From Dictyostelium discoideum (Eukaryota): a stretch of DNA of 64,000 bases. Positions 1 to 19,093 of the stretch are shown here, piece after piece (the stretch's first letter is position 1; each line of letters opens with the position of its first letter). The notes below the pieces were generated by a model, which saw only the letters and a program-made list of their open reading frames with translations, did not search any database and was not told the DNA's origin. The stretch spans positions 6,368,001 through 6,432,000 of the forward strand of contig CM000151.3 of the NCBI GenBank assembly GCA_000004695.1, given 5' to 3'. Both the position numbers and the translations under genes were made by a program.

Positions 1-3000
1 CTGTTACTTTAAATGATGTTATAACAGCAGGTGGCCCAGTAACACTTAATGGACAATTTTTAAATGTTGATACATCTCTAAGAGTTAAAATTCAAGATGT
101 AGATTGCCAAGTTTTAAGTGTAACACCTACTCAACTCCGATTTATTAGTCCACAGAAATCTTCAAGTGGTTCAAATACGTTTAGTTTAATTGTTGGTGGT
201 TTTGAATATACAGCAAATATTAATTATGTTTATGGCACTGCACCAATTTTTGATAACAAATATTCATGGAAAACAGTTGATGGTAAAAGTGTATTGGCTC
301 TTAGTGGTAAATATTTTTCACAATTTTCAAACAATATTATAAATGTTAATGGTAATGAATACACCGCAAGTATTACAAATGCAGCATTTGGTACTCAAAC
401 TTCCATTAGTCTTTTAAGTGATGTTCCAACAAATTCAATAGCTGTAGGAGCATCATTCCAGGTTTCAGTTAAAGTTGGAGGACAATCATCAGATACTAAA
501 AGTTTTAACTTTTTTAAACCTTCGGTTACTAAAACAACTTCATTATTAGATATTGGTGGTGTTGCAGTTTTCGAAGGTACATTTGGTATGGGTGAAGTTT
601 CTTCTATTAGGTCATTAACTATTGGTTCAATAACACCAGTTATACAAACTTTAAATACGACAGCTATTAAATTCCAATATTCCAGTCAAAATGCTGGTAC
701 ATATAATATGATTTTAAATATGGGAGGTTGTGAATCAATTACATCTATAACATATTCAACCACACCTGCACCAATTATTAGTAAATATACATGGCAACAA
801 TCTAGTAATATTTTAAATTTATTTGGTCAATGGTTTGGTTATTATGTTTCAAATTTGGTTTATATTAATAATGGTAATGCTAATACAATTCAAACAGCTA
901 CTCTTTCTTCTGGATATGATGTTCTTTCTTTATCACCATCTGTTTTACCTTCAATTGGTGATTCATTTACTGTTAAAGTTACAGTTAATGGTAGATCAAC
1001 AACATCAAATTTTGTTTATATTCAATCGGTTTCAATGACAACTCAATCATTAATTAAAACGGGTGGTATTGCAACATTTACAGGTTTATACACTGTTTCA
1101 AATCCAAATGTTGTATCACTTAAAATTGATGGTACTCAATGCCAAATATCAGTAATATCACCAAATTCTATTAAATTTAAATACCCTTCAAAAGCTATTG
1201 GTCAATATTCACTTTTAATTAATATTGGTGGTTTTGAATATACTACAACAGTTCAATATATAGATCCACCAACACCAACACTTTCAAATTCTTATAGATG
1301 GTCTAATACAGGAGAATTAATTTTCACTGGTACTGGAATAAGTTATGTAAATCAAAATCAATTAATTATTAATGGCGTTCCCTATGATGCTACTCTTGCA
1401 GTTGATTCTCAAGTACCAGGTTTTGATGATATTACATTTACATCTTCATCATTACCAACAACATTATTACAAGAAGACCAATTGTTTACTGTTCAAGTTT
1501 CAACAAATGGTTTGGTTTCAAACATAGTAACTTTTAACTTTATAAAAAAGATTATAATGAATGTTACTGATATCTATAGTATTTCTGGATATAAAGGTAG
1601 TGCTTATACAAATTTCACTGGTACATTTGGTACATCAAATACATCGATCGTATCATTAACTATTGATAATGTTCCATGCACAATTTATTCAATTTCACCA
1701 ACATCAATTGTTTTTTCAAATAATTTTAATATTAATTTAGGAAATTGTATTTTATTATTAAACATTGGAGGATTAGTTTATTCAACATCAATCAATGTTG
1801 TTGTGGTACCAAATCCAAAACTTTTAACAACTTATAATTGGATTTCAAATGATAATATGGTATTTTATGGTTCAACATTTTGTCATAATGCAGAAAATAT
1901 AGCTAATATTAATGGTGTAGGGTATGGAACATCATACGCCTATTCAATCAATGGTATTGATCAAATTTATTTTGATGTTAACCTTTTAATTTCATCATTA
2001 ACCATTGGTCAACCATTCACTGTTAAAGTTCATTCTGGTGTTGGATATTCAAATTTAGTTTCGTTTTTATATATAAAATCAATTTCAATCAATACTGTTG
2101 GTATTTATAATATTGATGGACTTGGAAGTTTATCTACAATTTTTTATGGCTCATTTAGTACATCAGATAGTAATTTTGTTTCATTATATATTGGAGAAGT
2201 TGAATGCACTATTAATTCAATTAGTCCAACTTTAATAAATTTTTCACACACTTCAAATTTTAAATTAGGTTCAAATGATTTACATATAAATATTGGAGGA
2301 TTTGAATATACTACAACAGTTTATGTTATGTCTGCACCAACCCCAATACTTTTAAATAGTTATTATTGGTCAGAGGATGATAATTTAATATTAAAAGGTT
2401 CAACATTTAATTATAAATCACAAAATAAAGTTAATATTAATAGTGTTGATTTTAATTCACCACCAGCTTTTTCAAATAATAGTATTGATCAAATTAAATT
2501 TAATGATAATTCAACAACTTCATCATTAACCATCGGTCAATCATTCACAGTTTATGTTAATAATGGTTTTGAAAATTCAAATTCAATAACATTTATATAT
2601 TTAAAATCAATTTCAATTAATACCCAAAGTTTAAATAATACTGGTGGTGATGCTACATTCTCTGGTGATTTTTATGTTTCAGATACATCTTTGGTTTCAC
2701 TTTTAATTGATAATGTTGACGTTCAAGTTACTCATATCTCTCCAAATAATATTTCATTCCAATATCCTGCAAAATCTAATGGTGAATATAATTTGTTTAT
2801 AAATATTGGTGGATTTGAATATTTAACAACTCTACAATATGTTACAAAACCAACCCCATCTCCTTCACAAACATCAGATTCTCAAACAACCGGATCTCAA
2901 ACAGCTGGAACTCAAACAACAGGTACCCAAACAACAACCACCCAAACAACGGGTACCCAAACAACAGGTACTCAAACAACAGGTACCCAAACAACAGGTA

Positions 3001-3492: not shown

Positions 3493-4986
3493 AAAGAAAA
3501 TAAAATTTATAAATATAATCAAAATTATTAAATTGAAACCAAAATTAATAATTGGAGAATTACTTGGGTTTTCACCAGAATCAGGACCTTGATAATCCAA
3601 GTAAACGAATTGTGGAGTTGAATCAATAGTGAGTTTAACTTTATTATTACTTGATGAGATGGTTTGTTTTATATTTTGATAGTTGTAAACAGAAGCGAAA
3701 TCTGCATCCAATTCGATTTCAATCGGGGTTGTATCTTCATCAGTTTTAAAGTTTGTAGAGTTTACCCAAATTAAATAACATGTTGAGCTTGGATTGCTAT
3801 ATGCATAAACAATGACACCACTTGGTAAACCTTTAAGAGATTTTGAAGAATCTAATGTTTTATCAAACAAATGGTGATCCCAAGTAACTAAAGATTTAGA
3901 GGAATCTTTAAGAACTGCTTTATCCTTTGCAAGTGTTTGATAGTCATAGAATAAACCCATATTTGAAAAAGCATCGGTACCAGAATTTGTATCACCCAAT
4001 ATAAAGATATGATTTTGACATACTCCTACCAATGTTGAAATAGTTGGTAATTTTAAGAAATAATTACGAGCCAAAGCAGAACTACCATAATAACCAGTAC
4101 CAGATTTAGTTGCAACACCAGTTTCAGTTACTATCCAAACTGATGGATTGAAGTTATATTTATTTGTTACTTTTCTGAAACTATTTTGTAAATCGGTATA
4201 TGCCAATAAGTATGCATCGGAATTTGTTTTTGAAGTACCATACATTGGATAGAAATGAGTTGAAATTGCATCAATATAATTCTTTCCAAATAAGGATGGA
4301 TTGGTTACAGAAGAGTTTTCACCATATCTTAATACAGCATCCAAGAATAATGGGTAACCTAAACCTCCGACAGTAATGAAACAAGTTGGATCAATTGATT
4401 TTGCAACTTCCCATGATATTCTTAATAAACGAACATATGTAAAAATATCACCTTGGAATCTTGCCAATTGGGCATTACTTGGTGGATTAGTTGCCCATGT
4501 TGAAACTACATTCCAATCGGAAACCCAATCTGGTTCATTATAGATTTCATAGATTTTAATATCACTCTTGTAAGTTGATACAATTTGTGATACACAATAT
4601 GCAAATTCATTAGCTTGATTGACTTTACCATTATCTAGCCAAATTGGTTGATAAATACTTGAAGGTACTGCTGAATCATCATTTTGATCAAAAGTTATAA
4701 ATGCTGTGAAATTACTTTGACCTGCTCTTTTTGAACTACCAAAACTATCATTATCATAAAGAATTTTATATCCCCATTGTTTGAAAAATGTGCATGGGAA
4801 TTTCATTCTTTGAGAACGAATTGATGCTTCCCCCATCAATGGTCCTAAATCTGAATTTGACCATCCACTTTTATATCCTGCATTTATACCATTTAAATAT
4901 TGTGGCCCATTATATGTACCACTTTCTGATAATACTATATTTATAAATAATATTGATAATAATAATAATATTTTTAAATTTTTCAT
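3487..4986 (-). CDS. Secreted glycoside hydrolase family 5 (cellulase/mannanase-like) protein with hydrophobic C-terminal (GPI-type) tail
   Basis: Single 499-aa ORF. N-terminal signal peptide MKNLKILLLLSILFINIVLS. GH5 hallmarks: 'IYEIYNEPDW' (NEP acid/base), 'STHFYPMY' (H-x-Y), 'WIVTETGVA' (nucleophile Glu in TExG). C-terminal hydrophobic stretch NLIILIIFINFIFFI. Confidence 0.55.
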
Positions 4987-5736: not shown

Positions 5737-7785
5737 TTAACCAAGAGGATCTAAAAAACTTTGAATCAATGAATCACCATTAATTAATTTTGTTGTTAAA
5801 ATAATAAACTTCTTATTAGTTTGTTTACCCAAAAATCTTAAAGCTGAAATTTCTGAAAAAGTAACACCACCAACAAAAAATACCATTGAAACACCTGATT
5901 TTTCTATTGAATTTATATTATTACTATTATTTGTAACATCAGTATTTAATGTACCAGGAGAACCACTTGACGAAATTGGTGTATTATTACTATTTGTATT
6001 ATTATTTATATTATTTATATTATTATTATTATTATTATTTATATTATGATTATTATTATTATCATCATCATAATCATAATTTTCATTTTCATCATTATTT
6101 AAAGAAAGTGATGCAATTGAAGGCGCAGAACCAGAATGAACTATACCACTACCATTATTATTATTATTATTATTTAAAAAGAATAATTGATTTTCATCAA
6201 AAATTGGACCAGGTAATAATTTTAAAGTATTTTCAATTGATTTCCAACCAGTTTTAGAAGATGGTAAAGAATATTGAACCAATCTAATTAATAGTGGAGC
6301 ATAACCAGAGTAAACGTAAGAGAAATCAGAAGGATCAATTTCATTGACATCATCAATTATTAAATTTAAATCCTCTTTAATTTGTTGAAAATTACCAATT
6401 GGTTTTGAATCTGATTTTCTAATTTGAATAAGACCAACTTTTTCAAGTTGTGATAATTGAATTAACCATTCTATGCCATAGTTTGAGATGATTTTAGATT
6501 TAATGAATTCATAATCATTCAATGGTAAACCATTATTAGTTAAACTATACAATGATAATAATCTAAGTACTTTTAAAATTGGATCTTTAATAGTGATACA
6601 TTCTTGAATATATCTATCGGCTAAATAAATATCATCTGAACCTAATAATAACTTTTGTTCACAATCTAATCTATTTTGAAAATAAGTTGATGCAGTAATT
6701 TCATGAATTTTCTCTGCAATTCCAACATGAACATGTAAACAAAATTCCTCTTGCTTACTAGAGTTTACACGTTTCATTAAATCACGTAATGCTGTTAAAC
6801 TTTCTGATCCAGTTAATTGTTTCTTTTCATCATAATATTGTTGTTTAGCTTTTGAATTTAATACACCACCTGGTCCCATTAAACTTGAAAAATTCATATC
6901 TCTAACTTGTGAAAATATTTTATCACCACTATGTAATGGAAATGATGATTTTTTATTATAATACATTGATCCACTATTATTATTATTATTTCTTTTATTA
7001 TTTTGATTATTATTTTGATTATTATTTTGTTGTGATGAAATACTATCATTTAAAATTTGACTATCAATTAATAAAATATTATTATTAATTGAAAAATATT
7101 CATCAATTAAACCTTCATATGTTAGAGGTGTACATAATGGTGTAATTAAATCAATATCACGATCAATAAACATAATTGAATCAATTTCTTTTGAAATTTC
7201 TAAAGATCTAATTGAATTTTGATTATTTTGATTTAAATCTCTTTGTTTTTCATTTCTAAGTCTTGATAGAGTTTCAACGATTAGCTTTGAAACTTTACCT
7301 TTACCTTTAATTGTTGGAATTAAACCAAATATCGATTGAAGTTTCATTACTGATTTTGATATATCATATGCAATCGATTTATTATTCTCCATTAAATATT
7401 CTCTATAGGAATTTGGTGATTCAAATGATAGTACATCATTATCCAATGGTATTAAATCCATTGACATTGATGTAATCGTTGAAAAATTACCATAAACACC
7501 TTGTTCCTCTAATATTGAATCACAAATTGGATCTACTTTTGGTATATAAATCATTGAATAATTCTTTTTAACATAATCATATAAATGACCTCTAATATGT
7601 TCTGATATGAAATTCATATACTTTACATTTGGTCTAATTAAATAAATTATGTTCTTTGATTCAGTTTCTAATTTACCTGATTTTAATTCATAAATTTTAT
7701 CAATACCATTTTGTTTTAAAAATATTGGATCTAAAAATAAATTCATTAATCCAATAATTTTTGAATCAATAATTAATGATGTTAA

Positions 7786-8611: not shown

Positions 8612-9820
8612 TCACTTTCCTTCAAATTCAATAAAATGTTCGAAAAATGGTGGTAATGAAGAAGGAAATTTAATAGTTGGAGTAATTTCCCAATATGAAC
8701 AAACTCTAGGTGAAGAAGGATGATATTGAAAACATTTCATTTCATTATGACAAGTATCATCTTCACATGATTCAAATTCACATTGTTGACTTGTAGTATT
8801 ACAAAATTGATTGGATAAACATGTACCACCGAAACAAATGGGTGTATTATTTATACTTTGCAAATTTCTTTCAAATTCTATACAAACACCACTCCAACCG
8901 AACTTTCTACAAATCCAACCAGTTGGACAATTACCACATTCAAATATTTCATTAAAGAAATTAAATGATCCATATGGTATACATAATGCACTATTTAATG
9001 GATTATACGTTGAACATTCAAAACCGCTTGGACAACTATTATTTGATAATTCACATGAAACAGTTTGATTTGTTCTTTCAACTATAATTTCACCACTACC
9101 ATTATTATTATTATTACTATTATTATTGATTAAAACAGTTGTAGTTGTTAAATTCTCTATAACTTTAAAACATGATACTATACCAACTCCAATAAGTGGT
9201 AAACATTCAGTACCAACATCACATTGAACTATATCGCAACTAGTGGGTAGACATGTTTTGACATCGTTCACCATCCTACAAACATATCCATCAACACATG
9301 GTAAATCACATCTTGTTCTTCCAAATATTATTTTACTATTTATACTCTTTAAAAAATTGGTACAAACTGGTTCAGGTTGACAACATAATGATTCAGGTTC
9401 TTCACAATCTGCCACTGATTCATAAATACAATCAAATCCTTTACTTTCACAATTTAATTCTTTACAAGTTATATTTGGTATTGGTATAATTTCGTAACCT
9501 GGTATTTCATTAATATCACCCCATAGTTCATAGAATACACCAGTTTGAAGATTTCTTAAACAATTTTGAATCTCTAATTTTTTATTACTTATATAACCAA
9601 TTACTGTATCGATTTCTAAACATAATGAAACTTGTCCTGGACAACAACTTGTTAAAATTAATGACATACACATTGGATATGCCGCTAAACATAATTCTGA
9701 TGATAATGTTTCACATCCTGTTAAACAATTAATTTTTGATTTATTTTCAATCTCTATTATTATTAATATTATTATTATTATATATTTTATTATTTTAAAT
9801 TGTTTATTTATATTTATTTT

Positions 9821-9823
<3 letters not shown>
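8612..9823 (-). CDS. Secreted cysteine-rich protein (more than 45 Cys), unknown function
   Basis: ORF 8612..9892. The first 23 codons are poly-K read out of an oligo(A) tract. The likely start is the second ATG at 9821-9823 (MKININKQFKIIKYIIIIILIII, signal-like). Dense Cys spacing (CLTGCETLSSELC..CCPGQVSLC..CEEPESLCCQPEPVC...) suggests EGF/disulfide-knot-like extracellular modules. Confidence 0.5.
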
Positions 9824-9864
<41 letters not shown>

Positions 9865-10089
9865 TTTTTTGTTTTTTTATTTCAGATTCCATATATGGAA
9901 CAAGAAATAAATAAATAAAAATGACTATATATGGTTTAAATTTGAATTTGAATATTTATGTTTTTTATTTGGTCAAACCGTATAAAATAACAACAATATA
10001 CCATTATTTTTAACAGCTAAAATATTAATGAATGGTGAAATCATATTAATATTAATATTATTGTTGTTATGTCGCACCACACACCCCCC

Positions 10090-10147
<58 letters not shown>

Positions 10148-10380
10148 AAAAAAAACAAAAAAAAATAAATTAATATATAAATAAAAATAATAAAAAGGAA
10201 TACCTTAACCCATGGGAATATATTATAATAAATTAATTATTATGATAAAAGATTTGGATTTTTTAAAATAAATTCTAACATCGAAATATAAATATACTGT
10301 AAAGCCAATATAATAAATTTACATATTATTGTGTCTTTACTTAAAGTTGTGTGATTAATAATTTTATTAAACTCTTTTTT

Positions 10381-10456
10381 TTATTCTTATTTTTTTATTA
10401 TTATTATTATTATATTATTATTATTATTATATTATTATTATTATTATTATTGTTAT

Positions 10457-10494
<38 letters not shown>

Positions 10495-11252
10495 AGTAGT
10501 TGGTGTTATATGAGCAGTATGGTCTGAAGTGTTCCGGGATGTTTATGGTCATGAGTTTCGAGTTCCAGTTGTAGTGTTATCGTTGAATTTTATTTGGTTT
10601 CTTCTGTACCATATCGATTCCATAATGGCTCCTATAAGATTTGATGAGAATGGTGTGAGTAGTTTTCCGAGAACTTTTTCGCTCCATGGACCGCGGTAAG
10701 TGTTGTTAGAGTCTTTACAGACCTTTTGATAGATTGAGTCGATATCCTGTTTTATTGATTTGCATTCGAAGAAGATGTGCATAGACGACTCTTCTTCTTT
10801 ACATGAGTGGCAATTCTCCCCATGGTGTTTTGGAAGTGCCTTGAGTAGATACCTCCATGCTAAGTCTCTTCCTTTGATAGTTGTGATTGATCTGGCTTCT
10901 CTAAATGGTAGAATTGGGTGATTAATGTTCTTTTGAATCAGTTTTTGACCTGTTGTTGGCTGGTGTTTGTTCCATCCCTTGTATTTGATATCCATCATGT
11001 TTCTATAGATTACTTTTAATTTTTGTTTGTTTTTGTATTTGGGTTTGACTTGGTTTAGTTTGAGAGTTATTCGCTCTCTTGGGTGGTGCAACAACTTCCA
11101 GGCTTTCCAGCATTTGATGTGAATCCTTGATAGTGAGTTTTCTTTTTCCGACTTCCAGACTTCCATATGTGGAGGGCAGTTCTGGTCGTCTTTTTCTCTG
11201 AAGTATTGTTCGTATATCCATGCTTTCTGGGCATTGGATCTGGTTGCCATAT
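10381..11252 (-). mobile_element. 5'-truncated, internally deleted copy of a TRE5-type (TRE5-A-like) non-LTR retrotransposon, lying 43-45 bp upstream of tRNA-Ser
   Basis: About 97% identical to 12463..13560 of the full element (3' module plus the last ~230 codons of ORF2, ORF remnant 10549..11250). It carries a ~185-bp internal deletion relative to 12699-12883. Homology ends at 11252 and tRNA-Ser starts at 11295. Confidence 0.75.
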
Positions 11253-11294
11253 TCCAGAGATAAAATTTTATTTATTTAAATATTTATTCTTAAA

Positions 11295-11376
11295 AAACAT
11301 CAAAGACATCGTAGCAAAGTGGTCTAATGCGTCTGACTAGAAATCAGATCCCTTCGGGGGCGCAGGTTCGAACCCT
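11295..11376 (+). tRNA. tRNA-Ser (anticodon AGA)
   Basis: 82 nt. Acceptor gacatcg/cgatgtc, 3-bp D-stem (class II), anticodon stem tctga/tcaga with loop ct-AGA-aa, 13-nt variable arm (cccttcggggg), T-arm gcagg-ttcgaac-cctgc, discriminator G. A box tagcaaagtgg, B box ggttcgaaccc. Confidence 0.85.
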
Positions 11377-11480
11377 GCCGATGTCGACTATATCTTTTAT
11401 CCTTAATCCAATTTTTTTAATCAAGATATTGTTAATACCGCTTTTAGGTAAAAAAAAAAAAAATCAAGATATTGTTACAT

Positions 11481-12044
11481 ACCATCCATCTTCCAACATA
11501 TCAACCACATATCACATCAAAAAGGTAGAAATACACTATTCAGATTTTTCTCAAGGTCACTTCCTGGAATCAACTATGAACGTAACGTACCATGCAAAAT
11601 CTGTAACAATATAATCCGTGACCCATACACTCACCTTTTTATAGACTGTATGCAAGTAAAAGAAATAGAAAACATAATAATTTCAACATTCAACAATCTC
11701 TCATTATTCAAGATCAGAAATTGGGATCTCAATTCACTAGATATTAGCAAAACAAATAAAAAAGAAAGAATCTACCCAAATTTAATCGGCATAATTATAC
11801 ATCAACTATGGAGAATAATTTGTCACAAACTATTCAATCAAGACGAATCTAAATCTCCACCCTCATTTGATCCAACATTAATTGAAAAAGAACTAACCAA
11901 CTTAATTAAAATAGAGAAATTCATTTTAATAAAGAAGATCGAAAGGAATGAAACAATATACAAATTAAATAACAGAGACCAATTAATAATCAACTTCAAC
12001 ACATCATGGCATAACCCGAACACTCCAAACCCAATTCCATTATA

Positions 12045-12080
<36 letters not shown>
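11481..12080 (+). mobile_element. 3' fragment of a second non-LTR retroelement (TRE3-like?) ending in a 35-nt poly(A), about 105 bp downstream of tRNA-Ser
   Basis: ORF 11650..12045 (131 aa) ends just before the poly(A) at 12046-12080. Its segment '...IIIHQLWRIICHKLFNQDE' parallels the TRE5 ORF2 C-terminal '...IMESIWYRRNQIKFNDN'. The 5' boundary is uncertain. Confidence 0.4.
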
Positions 12081-12185
12081 AAGTAGTAGTAATCATAATA
12101 TAACCAAAAATATCAACATATAACAATATAAAAATTTAAAAATTTAAAAATCTAAAAATTTAAAAATGTAATAAAATATAACAAT

Positions 12186-12283
12186 ATACCGCTTTTAGGT
12201 AAAAAAAAAAAAAATCAAGATATTGTTACACCGCTTTTAGGTAAAAAAAAAAAATAATCAAGATATTGTTTACACCGCTTTTA

Positions 12284-12327
<44 letters not shown>

Positions 12328-12372
12328 ACCGCTTTTAGGTAAAAAAAAAAATCAAGATATTGTTCCTTTTTT
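12186..12372 (+). repeat. Tandem array (4-5 units) of accgcttttaggt-(A)10-38-atcaagatattgtt(ac). One more unit lies at 11437-11480 on the other side of the TRE3-like fragment
   Basis: Read directly from the sequence. The units look like extremely 5'-truncated poly(A) retroelement tails with a duplicated 14-bp target. Confidence 0.6.
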
Positions 12373-12425
12373 TTTTTTTTTAATAACATCACTCAATTTG
12401 AGTGTGTTCTAGGAGAGTTTATTTG

Positions 12426-12459
<34 letters not shown>

Positions 12460-12582
12460 CTTTTTTTCTTGTTATTCTTATTTTTTTTTTTTTTATTATT
12501 ATTATATTATTATTATTATTATTATATTATTATTATTATATTATTATTATTATTATATTATTATTATTATTATTATTGTTAT

Positions 12583-12616
<34 letters not shown>

Positions 12617-12621
<5 letters not shown>

Positions 12622-15600
12622 AGTAGTTGGTGTTATATGAGCAGTATGGTATGAAGTGTTCCGGGATTTTTATGGTCATGAGTTTCGAGTTCCAGTTGTG
12701 GCTGAATTTTTCGAGTCTTCTTTTTATTGATGCGGTCCGATTGATTGACTCTCGGTTATCAGTGCATCTTAGTTCTTGACGTAGTTGTTTTTCTACTATC
12801 TTTCTTGTTCTATCCCATTCGGCATCTCTCGCTTTTTTTATTTTATGAATTATTTGGTTCTCTGTTATTATTGTAGTGTTATCGTTGAATTTTATTTGAT
12901 TTCTTCTGTACCATATCGATTCCATAATGGCTCCTATCAGATTTGATGAGAATGGTGTGAGTAGTTTTCCGAGAACTTTTTCGCTCCATGGACCGTGGTA
13001 AGTGTTGTTGGAGTCTTTACAGACCTTTTGATAGATTGAGTCGATATTCTGTTTTATTGATTTGCATTCGAAGAAGATGTGCATAGACGATTCTTCTTCT
13101 TTACATGAGTGGCAATTCTCCCCATGGTGTTTTGGAAGTGCCTTGAGTAGATATCTCCATGCTAAGTCTCTTCCTTTGATAGTTGTGATTGATCTGGCTT
13201 CTCTAAATGGTAGAATTGGGTGATTAATGTTCTTTTGAATCAGTTTTTGACCTGTTGTTGGCTGGTGTTTGTTCCATCCCTTGTATTTGATATCCATCAT
13301 GTTTCTATAGATTACTTTTAATTTTTGTTTGTTTTCGTATTTGGGTTTGACTTGGTTTAGTTTGAGAGTTATTCGCTCTCTTGGGTGGTGCAACAACTTC
13401 CAGGCTTTCCAGCATTTGATGTGAATCCTTGATAGTGAGTTTTCTTTTTCCGACTTCCAGACTTCCATATGTGGAGGGCAGTTCTGGTCGTCTTTTTCTC
13501 TGAGGTATTGTTCGTATATCCATGCTTTCTGGGCATTGGATCTGGTTGCCATATTCCAGAGTTCCAGGCCTCCAATTTCATAGTCTCTTCTGCTCCTTTC
13601 TTTTGAGATAGCCCACCTGTCCCCTTTGAATAACATGTTGGCATTAACGTTCTCCAGTTTCTTTATGTCATTTATTTCGTTGATGTATAGTTGGAATGTT
13701 AGTTGGGACAGCAGGTATGATTTGAGGATTGTGATTCTACCTTTTAGCGTTGATGACACGCTCGAATAGCATTTTGTGAGGTTTTCCAGTTTGTTCACCG
13801 TATCATCTACTTTGCTTATTACACCTTTGCGGTTGAAGAAAAAGCCAAGATATCTTTCTTCTTCTTTCGCCCCAATTGTCTTATATTTGGTCTTTATCTT
13901 TGGGTTTTTAGTGATGCACACACATTTATTATCGTTTATTTTTGCTGCTGTGGCTTGGCAAAATTTTATAACTTTCATATCCATTTTATCTGCGTCATCT
14001 ATGTTACTGGCTAGTGTGACTGTGTCGTCTGCATATTGTCCAATCTTCATCGAATTGTTCTGATTGAGTTTTATGCCTATTATGGTATTGTCTTTTCTTA
14101 TTGATGTTGATAAGCATTCACATACTATAGCGAAGAGAGTTGGTGAAATTGGGTCGCCCTGTTTTGTACCTCTTCCTGCTCTGAAGGATTCAGAGAGTTG
14201 TCCATTTACCATGACCCTTATGTTGGTGTTCGTTAACATGCTTAGTATTGTGTTTGTTATTTTCCGAGGGAACTTTAGATGGTTTAGAGTCCTTATTAAC
14301 GCTTTATGAGATATTGAATCGAAGGCTTTTTCGAAGTCATAAAAGGTGATTATCGTGTTTCTATCACTCTTTTCCATTGCTAAATCCAAAGCTATAATGT
14401 TGTTGTGGAGTAGCCTTCCTGGTATAAAACCGTTCTGGTACTTTGAGATTATGTTTGGCAGGATTTTTAGTATTCTATTGTTGATTATTTTTGAGTAGAT
14501 TTTGTAGTCTACGTTGAGTAACGTTATTGGTCTTCTGTTTGAGATTTCCAAGACATCCCCTTTACCTTTGTATATTGATGTAAGGATACCGTTCTTGAAT
14601 TCTGTTGGAATTTCATTGTTTAAAAAGAAGTTGAATAGTTCTGTGAGGATTGGAATTAGTTTGTGTTGGTGGATTTTATAGAATGAAGATGTTATTCCAT
14701 CTTCTCCTGGTGATTTACCTTCTGCTATCTTTTCTATTGCTAGCTTAACCTCATATTCTTCGATTCTGTCTTCCATCTCTGTTAATTTTTTTTTATCTAT
14801 TGGTGGGTTCCAGGTGCTTAGAAGTTCTGTATGTGTTTCTTGGTCGCATTCTTTCTCTTTGAAGAGTGTCTCGTAATATTTTCTGAAGCAATCTGTTATT
14901 TCTTTTTGTTCTGTTTCGATTTCTCCATTGGATGGGTTCTTTATTCTGTGAATCTGGGAGCTCGAGTCTCTTTTTTTAAGAATAGATGTAAGGAGATTTG
15001 ATGCTATTTCTTTATTGTTGATGTAGTTGATTGAGCTTTTGATCATTCTGTCTATTCTTTCTTCTTCTTGAAGTATTGTTATTTCGTTCGATATTGTTTC
15101 TTTTTCATATTTGTTTTTTGTTTTTGTGTGTTCATTTGCTAGATTTGATAGCGTTTTTTTTCTCTCTAGTATTCTTTTCTTTTCTGTTGTAATGCATTGT
15201 TTTTTTATTTTTTTTTTGAACTTAATCCAGTATTCCGTTATGTTAAGGTTTTTTCTTTTGGTTTCCTGGTAGTGGTCGATTATTTTTTCTATCTTTTTTA
15301 TTGTTTTATCTTCTTTAATTATTATTGAGTTCATTTTCCATAGGGGTGATTTGTATATTTTTGTGAAATTTGGTATTTTGAAATCCATCACTACTATGTT
15401 ATGGTCTGATTTGTTTATTTTATCTATTATCTTGTACGAGTGATTGAGTTGGTGCATCTTTGTTGATAAGAATGTTCTATCGATTAGTTTATCTTTGAAG
15501 GTTGTTTTAGTTGTTGAATTTGGTAGTATTTCGGTGAGTCCTACTTCCATCATTAGGAATTCTATTGTTTCATTTTCTGTGAATTTTCTCTTATCGGATG

Positions 15601-16048
15601 ATCCATCTTTGAACTTGATTTTTGCATATTTGTTGATGTTAAAGTCACCAGTAACTATGTCTGCCTGTTCTAGATCTTCAAGGGAAATATTGTTTGAAAA
15701 CCATCCTTTTCTTCTGTCATATGAGGCTGGTGCATAGATGCAAATTATGTTGATTTCCATATTGTTTAGAATTGCAGTAAATTTTAAGATTCTGCCTTCT
15801 TTTTCTTCCAAGTTTTTAATTTCTATTTGTTCTAGGTGATTTATTGCCATTACTCCTTTTCCTCTTGCTTCTTTTCCTTTTCCTCCTGTTGAGTAATGGT
15901 TTTTGATTTGCGCTAGATTTTGATCCTTTTTTAGATTTGTTTCTGTTAGTATTGATATATCAGGTTTTATTAGGTTAATTGTATTTTTTGTCTGATTCAT
16001 GCTTTTGATTGTTGAGCAACCTTGGCAATTCCAGGTCATTATTTTTAT

Positions 16049-16098
<50 letters not shown>

Positions 16099-16125
16099 TT
16101 TTTTTTTTTTTTTTTTTTTTTTTTT

Positions 16126-16163
<38 letters not shown>

Positions 16164-16165
16164 AA
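12617..16165 (-). CDS. TRE5 ORF2: apurinic-like endonuclease plus reverse transcriptase, with C-terminal Cys/His motif
   Basis: 1182-aa ORF. The first 38 codons are poly-Lys from a ~110-nt internal oligo(A). The functional start is probably ATG at 16049-16051 (MIKIMTWNCQG...) or ORF2 is reached by frameshift from ORF1 (+1 frame relative to ORF1). Confidence 0.8.
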
Positions 16166-17522
16166 ATGAGACAGATGGAAGTATGTCTTGGAGTACTTTG
16201 GGCAATTTGTCTCTTAGTGCTGCTTCCATTAGATCTGATTCTTCCTTTGTTATTTTAGTTGGAGTTTTGTAAGGTGTTGATATTTCTTGGTGATTAGTTG
16301 TTGGGTTTGGAGATGAGTTGGATCTTTTTCTTTTTACTGTCTCTGGGGTTGCTGGAGATTCTGGATTTTGGATAGGTGACATTGTTTGTCTTTTTTTGAT
16401 TGAGGCTAACCTTGGGGTTTCCTTCTTTTTTTGGTTATTTATTTTTTCTTCAAAAATTCTGTTCTCTTCTTCATTTTCGAACATCTTTCTTACCACTTCT
16501 AATGCTTCTTCATCTTCAGTTAACTCCATTTTCCTTTTCTCTTTGCTGTCAACACTATATGTTACTGTTATTGGTGGGACACGAAGTACTTTTCTCTTTT
16601 CAATATTGTTTATTGTGTTTGTCGTTTCTGTCGTTGTGGTTGTTGTAGTTGCTCTAATTGTTGTGGGTTTTTTATTTTCAATTTCGTTTTCCTTTACTTT
16701 TTCGTTTTTGCTCTTGTCTTTGATGTTGTCATTATTGATTTCTTTATTATTTTCTTTTCTGTTTTCTATTTTGTTTTTGTTGTTATTTTTTGATTCGCTA
16801 GTGTTTTTATGATTGGATTCTTCTTTTGATTTTATGTTTATTCTTGTGTTTTCCTTTATCTCGGGATTTGGTAGTTCCGTGATTTTTGAATTTTCTGAGA
16901 TTTCGTCTTCGATTTCCTTATTTGTTTTTCTTTGATTTTTTGTTTCTTCTGTTGTAGTGAGGAATAGTATTGTTATGTGTTTACAATGTATTAGCTGGTC
17001 TTTGTGCTCTGGACTGATAATTGAGTTGAATGAGTGTATTATCAGGTTTTCACCTAAATTATCTAATTTGATTATTTCCAGTCCTTCTTCATGCAATGTT
17101 TTTTCTACTATGTCCATTGATTTTTCCCAGTTGAATGTTTTGAAGATCTTTTTTGGTTTTATTATTGCTCTGTGAACTCCTTTTAGTACTCCGTTGAAAA
17201 CGTTAGAGTACTTGATTACTTGAGTTCTGCAGTCAGTTAGGATTTTGAATTTATTCTTACTTATTATTATCTTATCATCTCCTTGTAAATGAATTTCCAA
17301 TTCTGCTTTTAAGTTGTTGGAAATCTCATCTGGGATATTGATCATGAATTTATATTGTTTTAGTTCAATTTGAGTGTGGTATATTGCTTCGCTTATTTTA
17401 TCAAGTGTTCTGTACGTATTTTTTAAATATTTGAACTTTGTTCTGAGTTCATTTGATTTCTTGATTTTATCTGCCAATGTTTCTGTTGATTCTGTCATTA
17501 TTGTATTTGCCAATTTATTCAT
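16158..17522 (-). CDS. TRE5 ORF1 (454 aa, basic and Lys/Glu/Asn-rich nucleic-acid-binding type)
   Basis: Sits just upstream of ORF2 within the same element. The stop TAA is followed directly by the oligo(A) tract. ORF2 overlaps it by 8 nt in another frame. Confidence 0.7.
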
Positions 17523-17599
17523 TTCTTTTTTTTCTTTAAAATCTTTATTCGACTTTAAAAATTTAAAATTCTGGAAATTCCCTGAAAGAATGTTTTCGG

Positions 17600-17671
<72 letters not shown>

Positions 17672-17674
<3 letters not shown>

Positions 17675-18930
17675 TCTTTTTTTTATATGAAAAATGAAAT
17701 AATCAAATAAAAAAAGTGTTGTTGTTGATGTTTTTTCTCTTACTGATTATTTTTTCCTTTTTTTTTCAATTTTGCTTCGCAAAATTTTCAAAAAAAAGAA
17801 AAAAATAAATTACAATAAAATAAAGAAATAAAGTAGTTTATTCTAAGTGTATTTTATTTTATTTTTTTTAAGTCTTTTTTTTATATGAAAAATGAAATAA
17901 TCAAATAAAAAAAGTGTTGTTGTTGATGTTTTTTCTCTTACTGATTATTTTTTCCTTTTTTTTTCAATTTTGCTTCGCAAAATTTTCAAAAAAAAGAAAA
18001 AAATAAATTACAATAAAATAAAGAAATAAAGTAGTTTATTCTAAGTGTATTTTATTTTATTTTTTTTAAGTCTTTTTTTTATATGAAAAATGAAATAATC
18101 AAATAAAAAAAGTGTTGTTGTTGATGTTTTTTCTCTTACTGATTATTTTTTCCTTTTTTTTTCAATTTTGCTTCGCAAAATTTTCAAAAAAAAGAAAAAA
18201 ATAAATTACAATAAAATAAAGAAATAAAGTAGTTTATTCTAAGTGTATTTTATTTTATTTTTTTTAAGTCTTTTTTTTATATGAAAAATGAAATAATCAA
18301 ATAAAAAAAGTGTTGTTGTTGATGTTTTTTCTCTTACTGATTATTTTTTCCTTTTTTTTTCAATTTTGCTTCGCAAAATTTTCAAAAAAAAGAAAAAAAT
18401 AAATTACAATAAAATAAAGAAATAAAGTAGTTTATTCTAAGTGTATTTTATTTTATTTTTTTTAAGTCTTTTTTTTATATGAAAAATGAAATAATCAAAT
18501 AAAAAAAGTGTTGTTGTTGATGTTTTTTCTCTTACTGATTATTTTTTCCTTTTTTTTTCAATTTTGCTTCGCAAAATTTTCAAAAAAAAGAAAAAAATAA
18601 ATTACAATAAAATAAAGAAATAAAGTAGTTTATTCTAAGTGTATTTTATTTTATTTTTTTTAAGTCTTTTTTTTATATGAAAAATGAAATAATCAAATAA
18701 AAAAAGTGTTGTTGTTGATGTTTTTTCTCTTACTGATTATTTTTTCCTTTTTTTTTCAATTTTGCTTCGCAAAATTTTCAAAAAAAAGAAAAAAATAAAT
18801 TACAATAAAATAAAGAAATAAAGTAGTTTATTCTAAGTGTATTTTATTTTATTTTTTTTAAGTCTTTTTTTTATATGAAAAATGAAATAATCAAATAAAA
18901 AAAGTGTTGTTGTTGATGTTTTTCCTCTTC
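17672..18930. repeat. 6.35 tandem copies of a 198-bp unit (TRE5 A-module-like 5' repeat, putative promoter region)
   Basis: Units begin at 17672, 17870, 18068, 18266, 18464, 18662 and 18860, and are almost identical. The array is preceded by a 75-nt oligo(dT) on the + strand at 17596-17671. Confidence 0.85.
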
Positions 18931-18976
18931 TATTGTTCCTTAATAAATTTGTAATATGAGTTATTTTTTCATCAAA

Positions 18977-19050
18977 GGGACTATAGTTTAGTTGGATATA
19001 ACGACCGGCTACGAACCGGTAGGTCTCAGGTTCGACCCCTGATGGTCTCG
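18977..19050 (+). tRNA. tRNA-Arg (anticodon ACG)
   Basis: 74 nt. Acceptor gggacta/tggtctc (two G-U pairs), anticodon stem accgg/ccggt with loop ct-ACG-aa, T-arm tcagg-ttcgacc-cctga, discriminator G. Confidence 0.7.
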
Positions 19051-19082
19051 TATATTTTTAATCGCCTTGTAATTGAGACATT

Positions 19083-19093
19083 GGTTCGATTCT
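19083..19093 (+). promoter_or_regulatory. External B box (ex-B, ggttcgattct) 33 bp downstream of tRNA-Arg
   Basis: 10/11 match to the Pol III B-box consensus GGTTCGANTCC, at the position typical for Dictyostelium ex-B boxes (an extra TFIIIC site). Confidence 0.5.

Follow-up and report, generated by a model that had tools for sequence, protein, structure and literature searches.

A tandem tRNA-Ser/tRNA-Arg pair of Dictyostelium discoideum with two target sites occupied by TRE5-type and TRE3-type retrotransposons

The targeted integration of TRE5 and TRE3 retrotransposons, their tandem insertions and the double occupancy of one tRNA gene have already been published in Dictyostelium discoideum, so the finding reported here is ordinary in kind. 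[quoted passage not shown] TRE5 elements are overall located about 50 bp upstream of tRNA genes, within a published range of 34-95 bp (PMC5006619), the ranges being 37-90 bp for TRE5-A and 34-82 bp for TRE5-B (PMC5006619, Table 1). TRE5-A insertions are found for the most part 47+/-3 bp upstream of the tRNA gene, with the element's 5' end turned toward the gene's own 5' end, a zone which gathers 80% of the tagged-element insertions, 85% of the trap insertions and 59% of the reference-genome copies; the orientation is strict, and the insertions display target-site duplications and extra nucleotides at their 5' junction (PMC5391098). TRE3 elements share the orientation of the tRNA gene and lie 40-150 bp downstream of it, with an observed range of 14-305 bp (PMC5006619, PMC5911963). 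The present study concerns two tRNA genes, and the non-long terminal repeat (non-LTR) elements inserted around and between them, in a 64-kb stretch of D. discoideum DNA (contig CM000151.3, forward-strand positions 6,368,001 to 6,432,000), hereafter the window, whose own numbering is used throughout. The product of its open reading frame (ORF) at 8612-9892 is identical to DDB_G0276203 of D. discoideum AX4 over 403 of 403 residues, and on sequence grounds the DNA of the window matches the AX4 reference genome or a near-identical lineage, on chromosome 2.

Two tRNA genes were called in the window, tRNA-Ser(AGA) at 11305-11386 (61.5 bits; internal B box at 11365-11375 by the B-box pattern) and tRNA-Arg(ACG) at 18977-19050 (57.9 bits), both on the plus strand and with the two methods used, ARAGORN and Rfam RF00005, in agreement; no third tRNA gene was called anywhere in the 64 kb. 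An earlier annotation of this DNA made from its letters alone, referred to below as the sequence-only reading, had rightly recognized both genes, although it placed the start of tRNA-Ser at 11295 instead of 11305. It had also proposed to compare strains for presence or absence of the insertions. Orthologous loci, reached via a neighbouring gene, were retrieved from ACTFIR (locus L006) and ACTFIW (L007), both labelled D. discoideum, from ACTFIY (L003, “cf. discoideum”), from strain ACTFIT (L008 and L010), and from D. citrinum (L004) and D. dimigraforme (L005). In L003, L006 and L007 the site is empty: tRNA-Ser and tRNA-Arg form a tandem, both intact and with nothing inserted between them, with spacers of 69, 84 and 81 bp respectively, and the sequence of tRNA-Ser is unchanged in all three. 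These short insert-free spacers indicate that the 7.6 kb separating the two tRNA genes of the window is inserted DNA, and the spacer of the window measures 86 bp once its inserts are computationally removed. In ACTFIT the site is filled, with all the insertions present at 99% identity to the window. Since the native pair is only 69-84 bp apart, a TRE3 site assigned to tRNA-Ser and a TRE5 site assigned to tRNA-Arg fall on the same stretch of about 20 bp, an unusual geometry in which a single spacer of about 86 bp serves two tRNA genes, as a downstream target for the first and as an upstream target for the second.

From the anatomy, distances, orientation, target-site duplications and empty sites observed here, and with TRE5-A excluded, we hold with considerable confidence an explanation in which a tandem tRNA pair offers two target sites and has received TRE5-type and TRE3-type insertions, the former most likely of TRE5-B. 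The ancestral state would be a tRNA-Ser(AGA)/tRNA-Arg(ACG) tandem with a spacer of about 86 bp, and the elements would read the RNA polymerase III (Pol III) transcription complex rather than the DNA sequence and insert by target-primed reverse transcription. At a first site, 45 bp upstream of tRNA-Ser, a TRE5-type element would have inserted with its 5' end toward the tRNA gene and later died. The second site would consist of about 20 bp of the spacer, located at +35-47 from tRNA-Ser for the TRE3-type elements and 38-46 bp upstream of tRNA-Arg, just past the TFIIIB footprint, for TRE5. There, a full-length TRE5 element would have inserted head-to-head with tRNA-Arg and duplicated TATTGTTCC, and a TRE3-type family would have inserted in the orientation of the tRNA genes, at least one time as a 735-bp 3' fragment, and would also have left four micro-inserts, each event regenerating the target TCAAGATATTGTT. 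The mechanistic part, namely a contact between ORF1 and TFIIIB, a dependence on the B box and TFIIIC and target-primed reverse transcription, is by analogy with the TRE5-A literature. Several points weigh against this explanation: the truncated copy at the first site was either internally primed or later deleted, the names TRE5-B and TRE3 rest on behaviour and elimination, the TRE3-type and TRE5-type elements may have entered the spacer in either order, and the micro-inserts all start at the same nucleotide, as would also be expected if one unit had been duplicated in tandem. Small details are new, namely the target shared by TRE3 and TRE5 in one spacer, the stack of micro-insertions, the different TRE5 families found at the same tRNA-Ser across isolates and a 5' array of 6.4 versus 9.4 units. 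The locus is also useful as a worked example, with empty and filled alleles in sequenced isolates and clean target-site duplications.

The two TRE5-type elements of the window both lie on the minus strand, opposite to the tRNA genes, which are on the plus strand; the 5' end of each element faces that of its tRNA gene, which is the head-to-head arrangement described in the sequence-only reading. The same layout is observed in L002, L009 and L010. The gap is 45 bp between the truncated copy and tRNA-Ser (11260-11304, a flank in which the part common to the empty-site strains begins with “agataaaat”) and 47 bp between the full element and tRNA-Arg, the latter being composed of one extra nucleotide, a G in the sense of the element, and 46 bp of native spacer (18930-18976). 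For the truncated copy, a homology end at 11252 and a gap of 43-45 bp had been given; the end is at 11259 and the gap stands, at 45 bp, because two errors cancelled each other. The 5' end of the full element, earlier set at about 18930 and 46 bp from tRNA-Arg, is at 18929, where the repeat array ends, and is followed by the extra nucleotide and the 46 bp. Independent full copies in another D. discoideum assembly lie 41 bp from a tRNA-Ala (L002) and 40 bp from a tRNA-Asp (L009), and three independent full copies begin within 3 nt of one position in the 198-bp unit, each of them preceded by an extra G. The target-site duplication of the full element is TATTGTTCC (+TT), with its left copy at 12358-12366, inside a target copy that runs into the native spacer (12352-12368, the fifth copy of TCAAGATATTGTT), and its right copy at 18931-18939; the L002 copy is flanked by CAATATTAAT as target-site duplication. 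TATTGTTCC occurs twice in the 64 kb, at the two junctions of the full element, and this restriction to them, the 98.7% identity over 691 bp shared by the two minus-strand copies and the excess of repeated motifs detailed below exclude chance. The distances and orientation of both copies fit the published TRE5 behaviour and support the core of the sequence-only reading, that of a position-specific, Pol III-guided pattern of TRE5/TRE3 integration.

At tRNA-Ser, the copy upstream of the gene (about 10375-11259, minus strand; blastn against the full copy) is a dead TRE5-B-like element, 5'-truncated inside ORF2. Its segment 10569-11259 corresponds to 12871-13561 of the full copy at 98.7% identity over 691 bp, and its segment 10381-10572 to 12507-12699 at 96.4% (blastn in both cases). 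The two homology blocks are separated by a 172-bp deletion with a TTGT microhomology at the junction. We considered this deletion as a possible subfamily marker, comparable to the BC deletion of TRE5-A.2, and rejected it, since other truncated AX4 copies do not have it and it is thus private to this copy. A remnant ORF of 233 aa is found at 10549-11250. In local alignment, the copy lacks the terminal ~95 nt, including the 3' hairpin, and keeps the (TAA)n/A-rich tail region. Its target-site duplication was sought and only an imperfect and unconvincing AT-rich 9-mer was found. In L006 (~9440-9575) and L007 (~9350-9480), another short TRE5 fragment lies on the plus strand 27 bp upstream of the same tRNA-Ser, with 78% identity between its last 62 nt and the C-module of TRE5-A, which is the published TRE5-C value. 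This TRE5-C-like fragment indicates that the landing pad of tRNA-Ser was hit independently by another family.

Downstream of tRNA-Ser, the window carries a 5'-truncated TRE3-like non-LTR element of 735 bp on the plus strand (11480-12214), delimited by frame analysis and by the architecture of its relatives. It encodes the C-terminus of an ORF2 (188 aa, 11479-12045) with a CCHC-type motif (C-x2-C...H...C), followed by an internal A35 (12046-12080), a 107-bp AT-rich 3' untranslated region (UTR), a terminal ACCGCTTTTAGGT (12188-12200) and an A14 tail (12201-12214). The database relatives of the 188-aa product, all of them unnamed, come from D. dimigraforme and D. citrinum alone, with 49-65% identity. 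At the loci of three relatives (L001, L011 and L012), the stop codon precedes an internal poly(A) of ~30 nt, after which come an AT-rich UTR of 100-150 nt, a ...CACCGC-hairpin-AGGT end and the real poly(A) tail; this shared 3' architecture indicates that the window copy passes its A35 and ends at 12214. The non-LTR fragment of the sequence-only reading was therefore real, as was its ORF2 C-terminus, whereas its end at 12080 was 134 bp short, the A35 being internal. The insert is flanked on both sides by TCAAGATATTGTT(aca), a target-site duplication of 13-16 bp whose left copy, TCAAGATATTGTT + aca, occupies 11464-11479, and the 45 bp at 11435-11479 recur without mismatch at 12186-12230. The relatives in L001 and L011 are flanked by target-site duplications of 15 bp, and the one in L012 shows, on its 5' side alone, a 15-bp repeat in which one position is mismatched.

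The 3' hairpin of the relatives is about 45 nt long (-15 kcal/mol, z -3.4 to -4.5) with an ACC/GGU closure (L001 6852-6898, L011 7092-7138). In the window (11437-11449 and 12188-12200), the closing ACC...GGU and a 7-nt loop are left, and the micro-inserts consist of this minimal end.

The spacer thus holds, alongside the 735-bp insert, four plus-strand micro-insertions made of the terminal 13-15 nt of this TRE3-like insert followed by a poly(A). The first 34 bp after tRNA-Ser are native and run into a first copy of the 13-bp target TCAAGATATTGTT (11421-11433; together 11387-11433), like the empty spacers of L006 and L007. Micro-insertion 1, “aat” + ACCGCTTTTAGGT + A14, follows at 11434-11463 and precedes the second target copy, which opens the 735-bp insert. 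Beyond this insert, within 12215-12351, the third target copy (12215-12227, plus strand) is followed by a micro-insertion of ac + ACCGCTTTTAGGT + A12TAA, the fourth (12258-12270, plus strand, with one extra T) by ac + ACCGCTTTTAGGT + A40, and a last micro-insertion, c + ACCGCTTTTAGGT + A11, has no target copy before it and the fifth one after it. Both motifs are in large excess, with five occurrences of ACCGCTTTTAGGT followed by poly(A) for 0.03 expected and five of TCAAGATATTGTT for 0.66 expected. The TRE3-type target TCAAGATATTGTT and the TRE5 target TATTGTTCC, the latter 38-46 bp before tRNA-Arg, overlap by 7-8 nt.

LINE-like elements such as L1 and R2 leave severely 5'-truncated or abortive products of target-primed reverse transcription and can undergo template jumping. 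The micro-inserts resemble these products, being composed of a 3' end and a poly(A) with target-site duplications, and including one 3'-end/3'-end junction without a target copy, which looks like a template jump. They differ from them in that the window stacks several at one Pol III-defined target, with a regenerated target copy between them. The micro-inserts would represent serial, extremely 5'-truncated, abortive events of target-primed reverse transcription, which we infer to be separate, and the locus would have undergone about seven insertion events, provided that each micro-insertion is counted separately, rather than the three independent events of the sequence-only reading. That reverse transcription aborted repeatedly at a single Pol III-defined site, and that the spacer is a hotspot shared by TRE3 and TRE5 and nicked within ~20 bp, is a tentative proposal to which we give somewhat less than even credence. 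The array bears on the abortion rate of target-primed reverse transcription and, if the proposal is true and if such arrays are common at Dictyostelium tRNA genes, they could provide a countable and so far unrecognized footprint of started versus completed integrations.

A different origin, rather unlikely in our view and nonetheless the strongest competitor, is that the five ACCGCTTTTAGGT(A)n units derive from one truncated insert which was amplified with its target-site duplication as a 42-44-bp minisatellite, by slippage or unequal crossing-over. In addition to the common starting nucleotide mentioned above, TRF does detect a 42-44-bp tandem array with 83-94% matches, and the number of repeats shifts at the same locus in the 198-bp array of the full element (6.4 versus 9.4). 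Amplification of a single unit accounts less well for 5' junctions that vary (aat, aca, ac, tac, c), for tails that vary (14, 14, 12+TAA, 40 and 11) together with an extra T in one target copy, for the unit without a target copy, which resembles template jumping more than slippage, and for the presence of one micro-insert on the far side of the 735-bp insert. It is further opposed by the occurrence of the same arrangement, a target copy, 2-12 nt and poly(A), then a target copy, at unrelated D. dimigraforme loci (L012 6405-6448 and L001 about 6990-7050) and for two element families.

Two short inserts of this kind were observed at the loci of the relatives. In L012 (6405-6448), “ag” + A13 stands between two copies of CCTTTAT(T/A)ATAATGG, and in L001 (~6925-7050), GACCAAGGTTAT + A15 stands between copies of TGTTATTTTTTT, the 12 nt being those with which a TRE5-B-like 3' fragment next to it ends. 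In the empty Ser-Arg spacers of L006 and L007, 11-bp tandem duplications (CCAGATTTCTT x2 and CAGATATTCTT x2) lie 10-35 bp upstream of tRNA-Arg and may stem from simple slippage or be the footprints of target duplications without a kept insert.

The other occupant of the spacer is a full-length TRE5-B-like non-LTR retrotransposon of 6548 bp on the minus strand (12382-18929), delimited using Pfam, translations, TRF and the L002 copy, to which it is 99.7% identical. Its 3' end was fixed by this independent copy: the element runs through (TAA)n and ends with ...CTCCTAGAACACACTCAAATTGAGTGATGTTATT and a poly(A), after which the flanks diverge. It is therefore at 12382 and not at 12463 as in the sequence-only reading, a difference of 81 bp. 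The tail, a T run on the plus strand at 12369-12381, has a length of 13-15 nt, the first two T of the whole run (12367-12381) possibly belonging to the target-site duplication. The 235-bp 3' UTR (12382-12616) contains A runs, (TAA)n and a terminal hairpin at about 12385-12408, with a predicted fold of -8.5 kcal/mol (z -3.3) computed without the last 3 nt of the element. Both ORFs are open. ORF2 (12617-16051, 1144 aa) combines an endonuclease, a reverse transcriptase and a Cys/His motif (ENCHSCKEEESSMHIFFEC), with RVT_1 recognized by Pfam at E = 5e-37 and Exo_endo_phos at residues 43-255 with 18.4 bits, under the Pfam cut-off. It is separated by an A-rich spacer of about 106 nt (16052-16157) from ORF1 (16158-17522, 454 aa and 52.8 kDa by translation), which is identical to that of L009 and L010. 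This spacer is nearly all A, with A33 C A27 C A47 in the window versus A42 C A27 in ACTFIT (L010 ~4364-4435), and ORF2 has its own ATG directly after it. Upstream of ORF1 are a unique 5' UTR (17523-17602), an A69 run (17603-17671) within which the repeat array already begins according to TRF, and the array itself, a 198-bp tandem repeat of 6.4 units with 99% matches (about 17654-18929; TRF). At the same insertion, ACTFIT has 9.4 units (L010 1029-2898), and two other full-length copies have ~1.4-1.5 units (L002 4170-4461; L009 2614-3001). The contrast between 6.4 and 9.4 units reflects either a real instability of this putative promoter array or an assembly collapse; an unstable 5' array bears on the promoter copy number in an active element.

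The full element is most likely TRE5-B, an assignment reached by elimination, since published descriptions and sequence markers set it apart from TRE5-A and TRE5-C. TRE5-B has two ORFs and neither a 3' B-module nor a C-module, its ORF1 is ~25% identical to that of TRE5-A and its integration preference is the same (PMC3159450), and TRE5-C is known as an 879-bp consensus with a C-module, nothing longer having been described (PMC5006619, PMC3159450). For comparison we used P0074, a TRE5-A ORF1 product (MKITNNTTNI...) with Ile-10 that encodes the Rep-108 and Rep-109 sites. The ORF1 of the window aligns with it at 37% identity over 150 aa and 32% over 62 aa, the remainder being unalignable; the 76 identical residues represent about 17-20% of 375-454 aa. 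It thus appears to be a distant paralogue of P0074, and this divergence fits the ~25% published for TRE5-B. The element shares with TRE5-B the two ORFs, the set of ORF2 domains, a head-to-head position ~40-47 bp upstream of tRNA genes and the absence of a 3' B-module and of a TRE5-A-type C-module; it differs from it by its length (6548 bp versus a 5971-bp consensus) and by its 6.4 (9.4 in the other assembly) 198-bp units. With both ORFs open, it is the best TRE5-B candidate, the literature giving one full-length TRE5-B in AX4.

Because the TRE5-B label was obtained by elimination alone, the element could in principle belong to a TRE5-type family outside the described A, B and C, which we find improbable. 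This idea draws on the length of the element, 5558 bp when reduced to 1.4 repeat units versus a published TRE5-B consensus of 5971 bp (PMC5006619), and on the one full-length TRE5-B of the AX4 literature compared with at least three full-length copies in the other assembly. However, variable repeat units and homopolymers account for the differences in length, an exhaustive catalogue of D. discoideum repeats reports just TRE5-A, B and C, and the published TRE5-B traits (ORFs, 3' end, ORF1 divergence and integration) all match.

The plus-strand fragment in turn shows TRE3-type behaviour. The position at which it originally inserted, 35-47 bp after tRNA-Ser, is also 40-52 bp before tRNA-Arg. The insert now starts 93 bp after tRNA-Ser, a distance that includes the earlier 43-bp micro-insertion unit; the sequence-only reading had placed it ~105 bp downstream, a figure which arises from this micro-insertion having pushed the fragment away. 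The targets of relatives in the same orientation are at +44..58 (L011) and +38..52 (L012) from the 3' end of a tRNA gene; another L001 copy lies downstream of a minus-strand tRNA gene, and one L001 copy does not fit. Like TRE3-A to TRE3-D, the fragment is a non-LTR element in the tRNA orientation, downstream and within 14-305 bp, with a poly(A) and a target-site duplication. It departs from them by a target (+35..47) nearer to the gene than the usual ~100 bp and by a 3' hairpin, present in the sister-species relatives, that is shrunk to ACCGCTTTTAGGT, and its protein is ~26% identical to that of a TRE3-type copy located downstream of tRNA-Ala in L002. Given a target equidistant from both genes which overlaps the TRE5 target by 7-8 nt, the plus-strand inserts might instead have been directed to the DNA upstream of tRNA-Arg, 40-52 bp away from the 5' end of this gene. 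This is very unlikely, since TRE5-type elements are strictly head-to-head and these inserts face the opposite way, and since the L011 and L012 relatives have one tRNA gene 38-58 bp upstream of them and no other on their far side.

The identity of the minus-strand elements with TRE5-A was the initial reading, their 3' end being then taken for a “C-module”, and was dropped after the tests of primers, Ile-10, B-module and C-module. The four published TRE5-A ORF1/ORF2 primers (PMC4559204) find no match in the window within 4 mismatches, and position 10 of the window ORF1 is Thr, versus Ile in TRE5-A (PMC3159450). The TRE5-A hallmark is the duplication in the 3' UTR of the B-module, 290 bp long and holding the ORF1 start; no such copy exists in the 3' UTR of the window element, where the best match between 5' and 3' regions covers 14-25 nt at E >= 0.003. 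The four C-module bases mutagenised in PMC3159450 (T15, C26, A35 and C38, numbered from the 3' end) score 1/4 at the true 3' end of the element and at most 3/4 at offsets within 6 nt. A TRE5-A fragment of L008 (20970-21424, minus strand), serving as positive control, gives 4/4 at offset 0, an ORF start of MKITNNTTNI and 26/27 for Rep-108. The resemblances to TRE5-A (DRE) reside in the targeting geometry, the target-site duplications, the extra 5' nucleotide, a promoter-like 5' module of ~200 bp, a predicted 3' terminal hairpin and a homologous N-terminal domain of ORF1; the differences are the absence of a duplicated B-module and of primer matches, another 3' end and another ORF1. The full element is not TRE5-A, and the “A-module-like” hint of the sequence-only reading is contradicted by every TRE5-A marker tested. 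That the minus-strand elements could still be the classic DRE has next to no probability: the 198-bp unit is close to the published 200-bp A-module, TRE5-A is the commonest TRE5 with 102 copies (PMC5006619) and its distance and orientation behaviour is the same (PMC5391098), but the window has Thr-10, no B-module and no primer match where Rep-108 fits the L008 fragment at 26/27, a C-module score of 1/4 (maximum 3/4) versus 4/4 in that fragment, and an ORF1 only 37% identical over 150 aa to that of TRE5-A.

AT-rich repeats and three blocks of raised G+C separate and flank the two tRNA genes. An external B box (GGTTCGATTCT, 19083-19093, plus strand; pattern search, 0 expected by chance), of the kind described in PMC5911963, is located 33 bp past tRNA-Arg and is also kept in L003, L006 and L007. 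In D. citrinum and D. dimigraforme (L004 and L005), tRNA-Ser is followed by an external B box and there is no tRNA-Arg gene; at the position of this box, the D. discoideum lineage has tRNA-Arg with its own external B box, which in the window is the one at 19083-19093.

Genuine TRE5-A pieces are absent from the window and present in L002 (~10440-10760) and L008 (20970-21424). The one of L008, a 3' end with the B-module then the C-module, lies to the left of the window, ~1.1 kb outside it, and L006 and L007 have a tRNA-Gln nearby. In L002, a TRE5-A 3' fragment ending in the C-module (10412-10770) directly follows the TRE5-B-like copy upstream of tRNA-Ala and is flanked by the same target (CAATATTAAT / CAATATTAT), forming a TRE5-B-like/TRE5-A tandem that reuses one target, CAATATTA. 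The (TAA)n tail of this TRE5-B-like copy is itself interrupted by an insertion of ~750 bp (9470-10226) with terminal inverted repeats (CACAGCGAAGAAAAA ... TTTTTCTTTGCTGTG), which resembles a small DNA transposon and includes GAGTTCGAAGCC, a B-box-like sequence.

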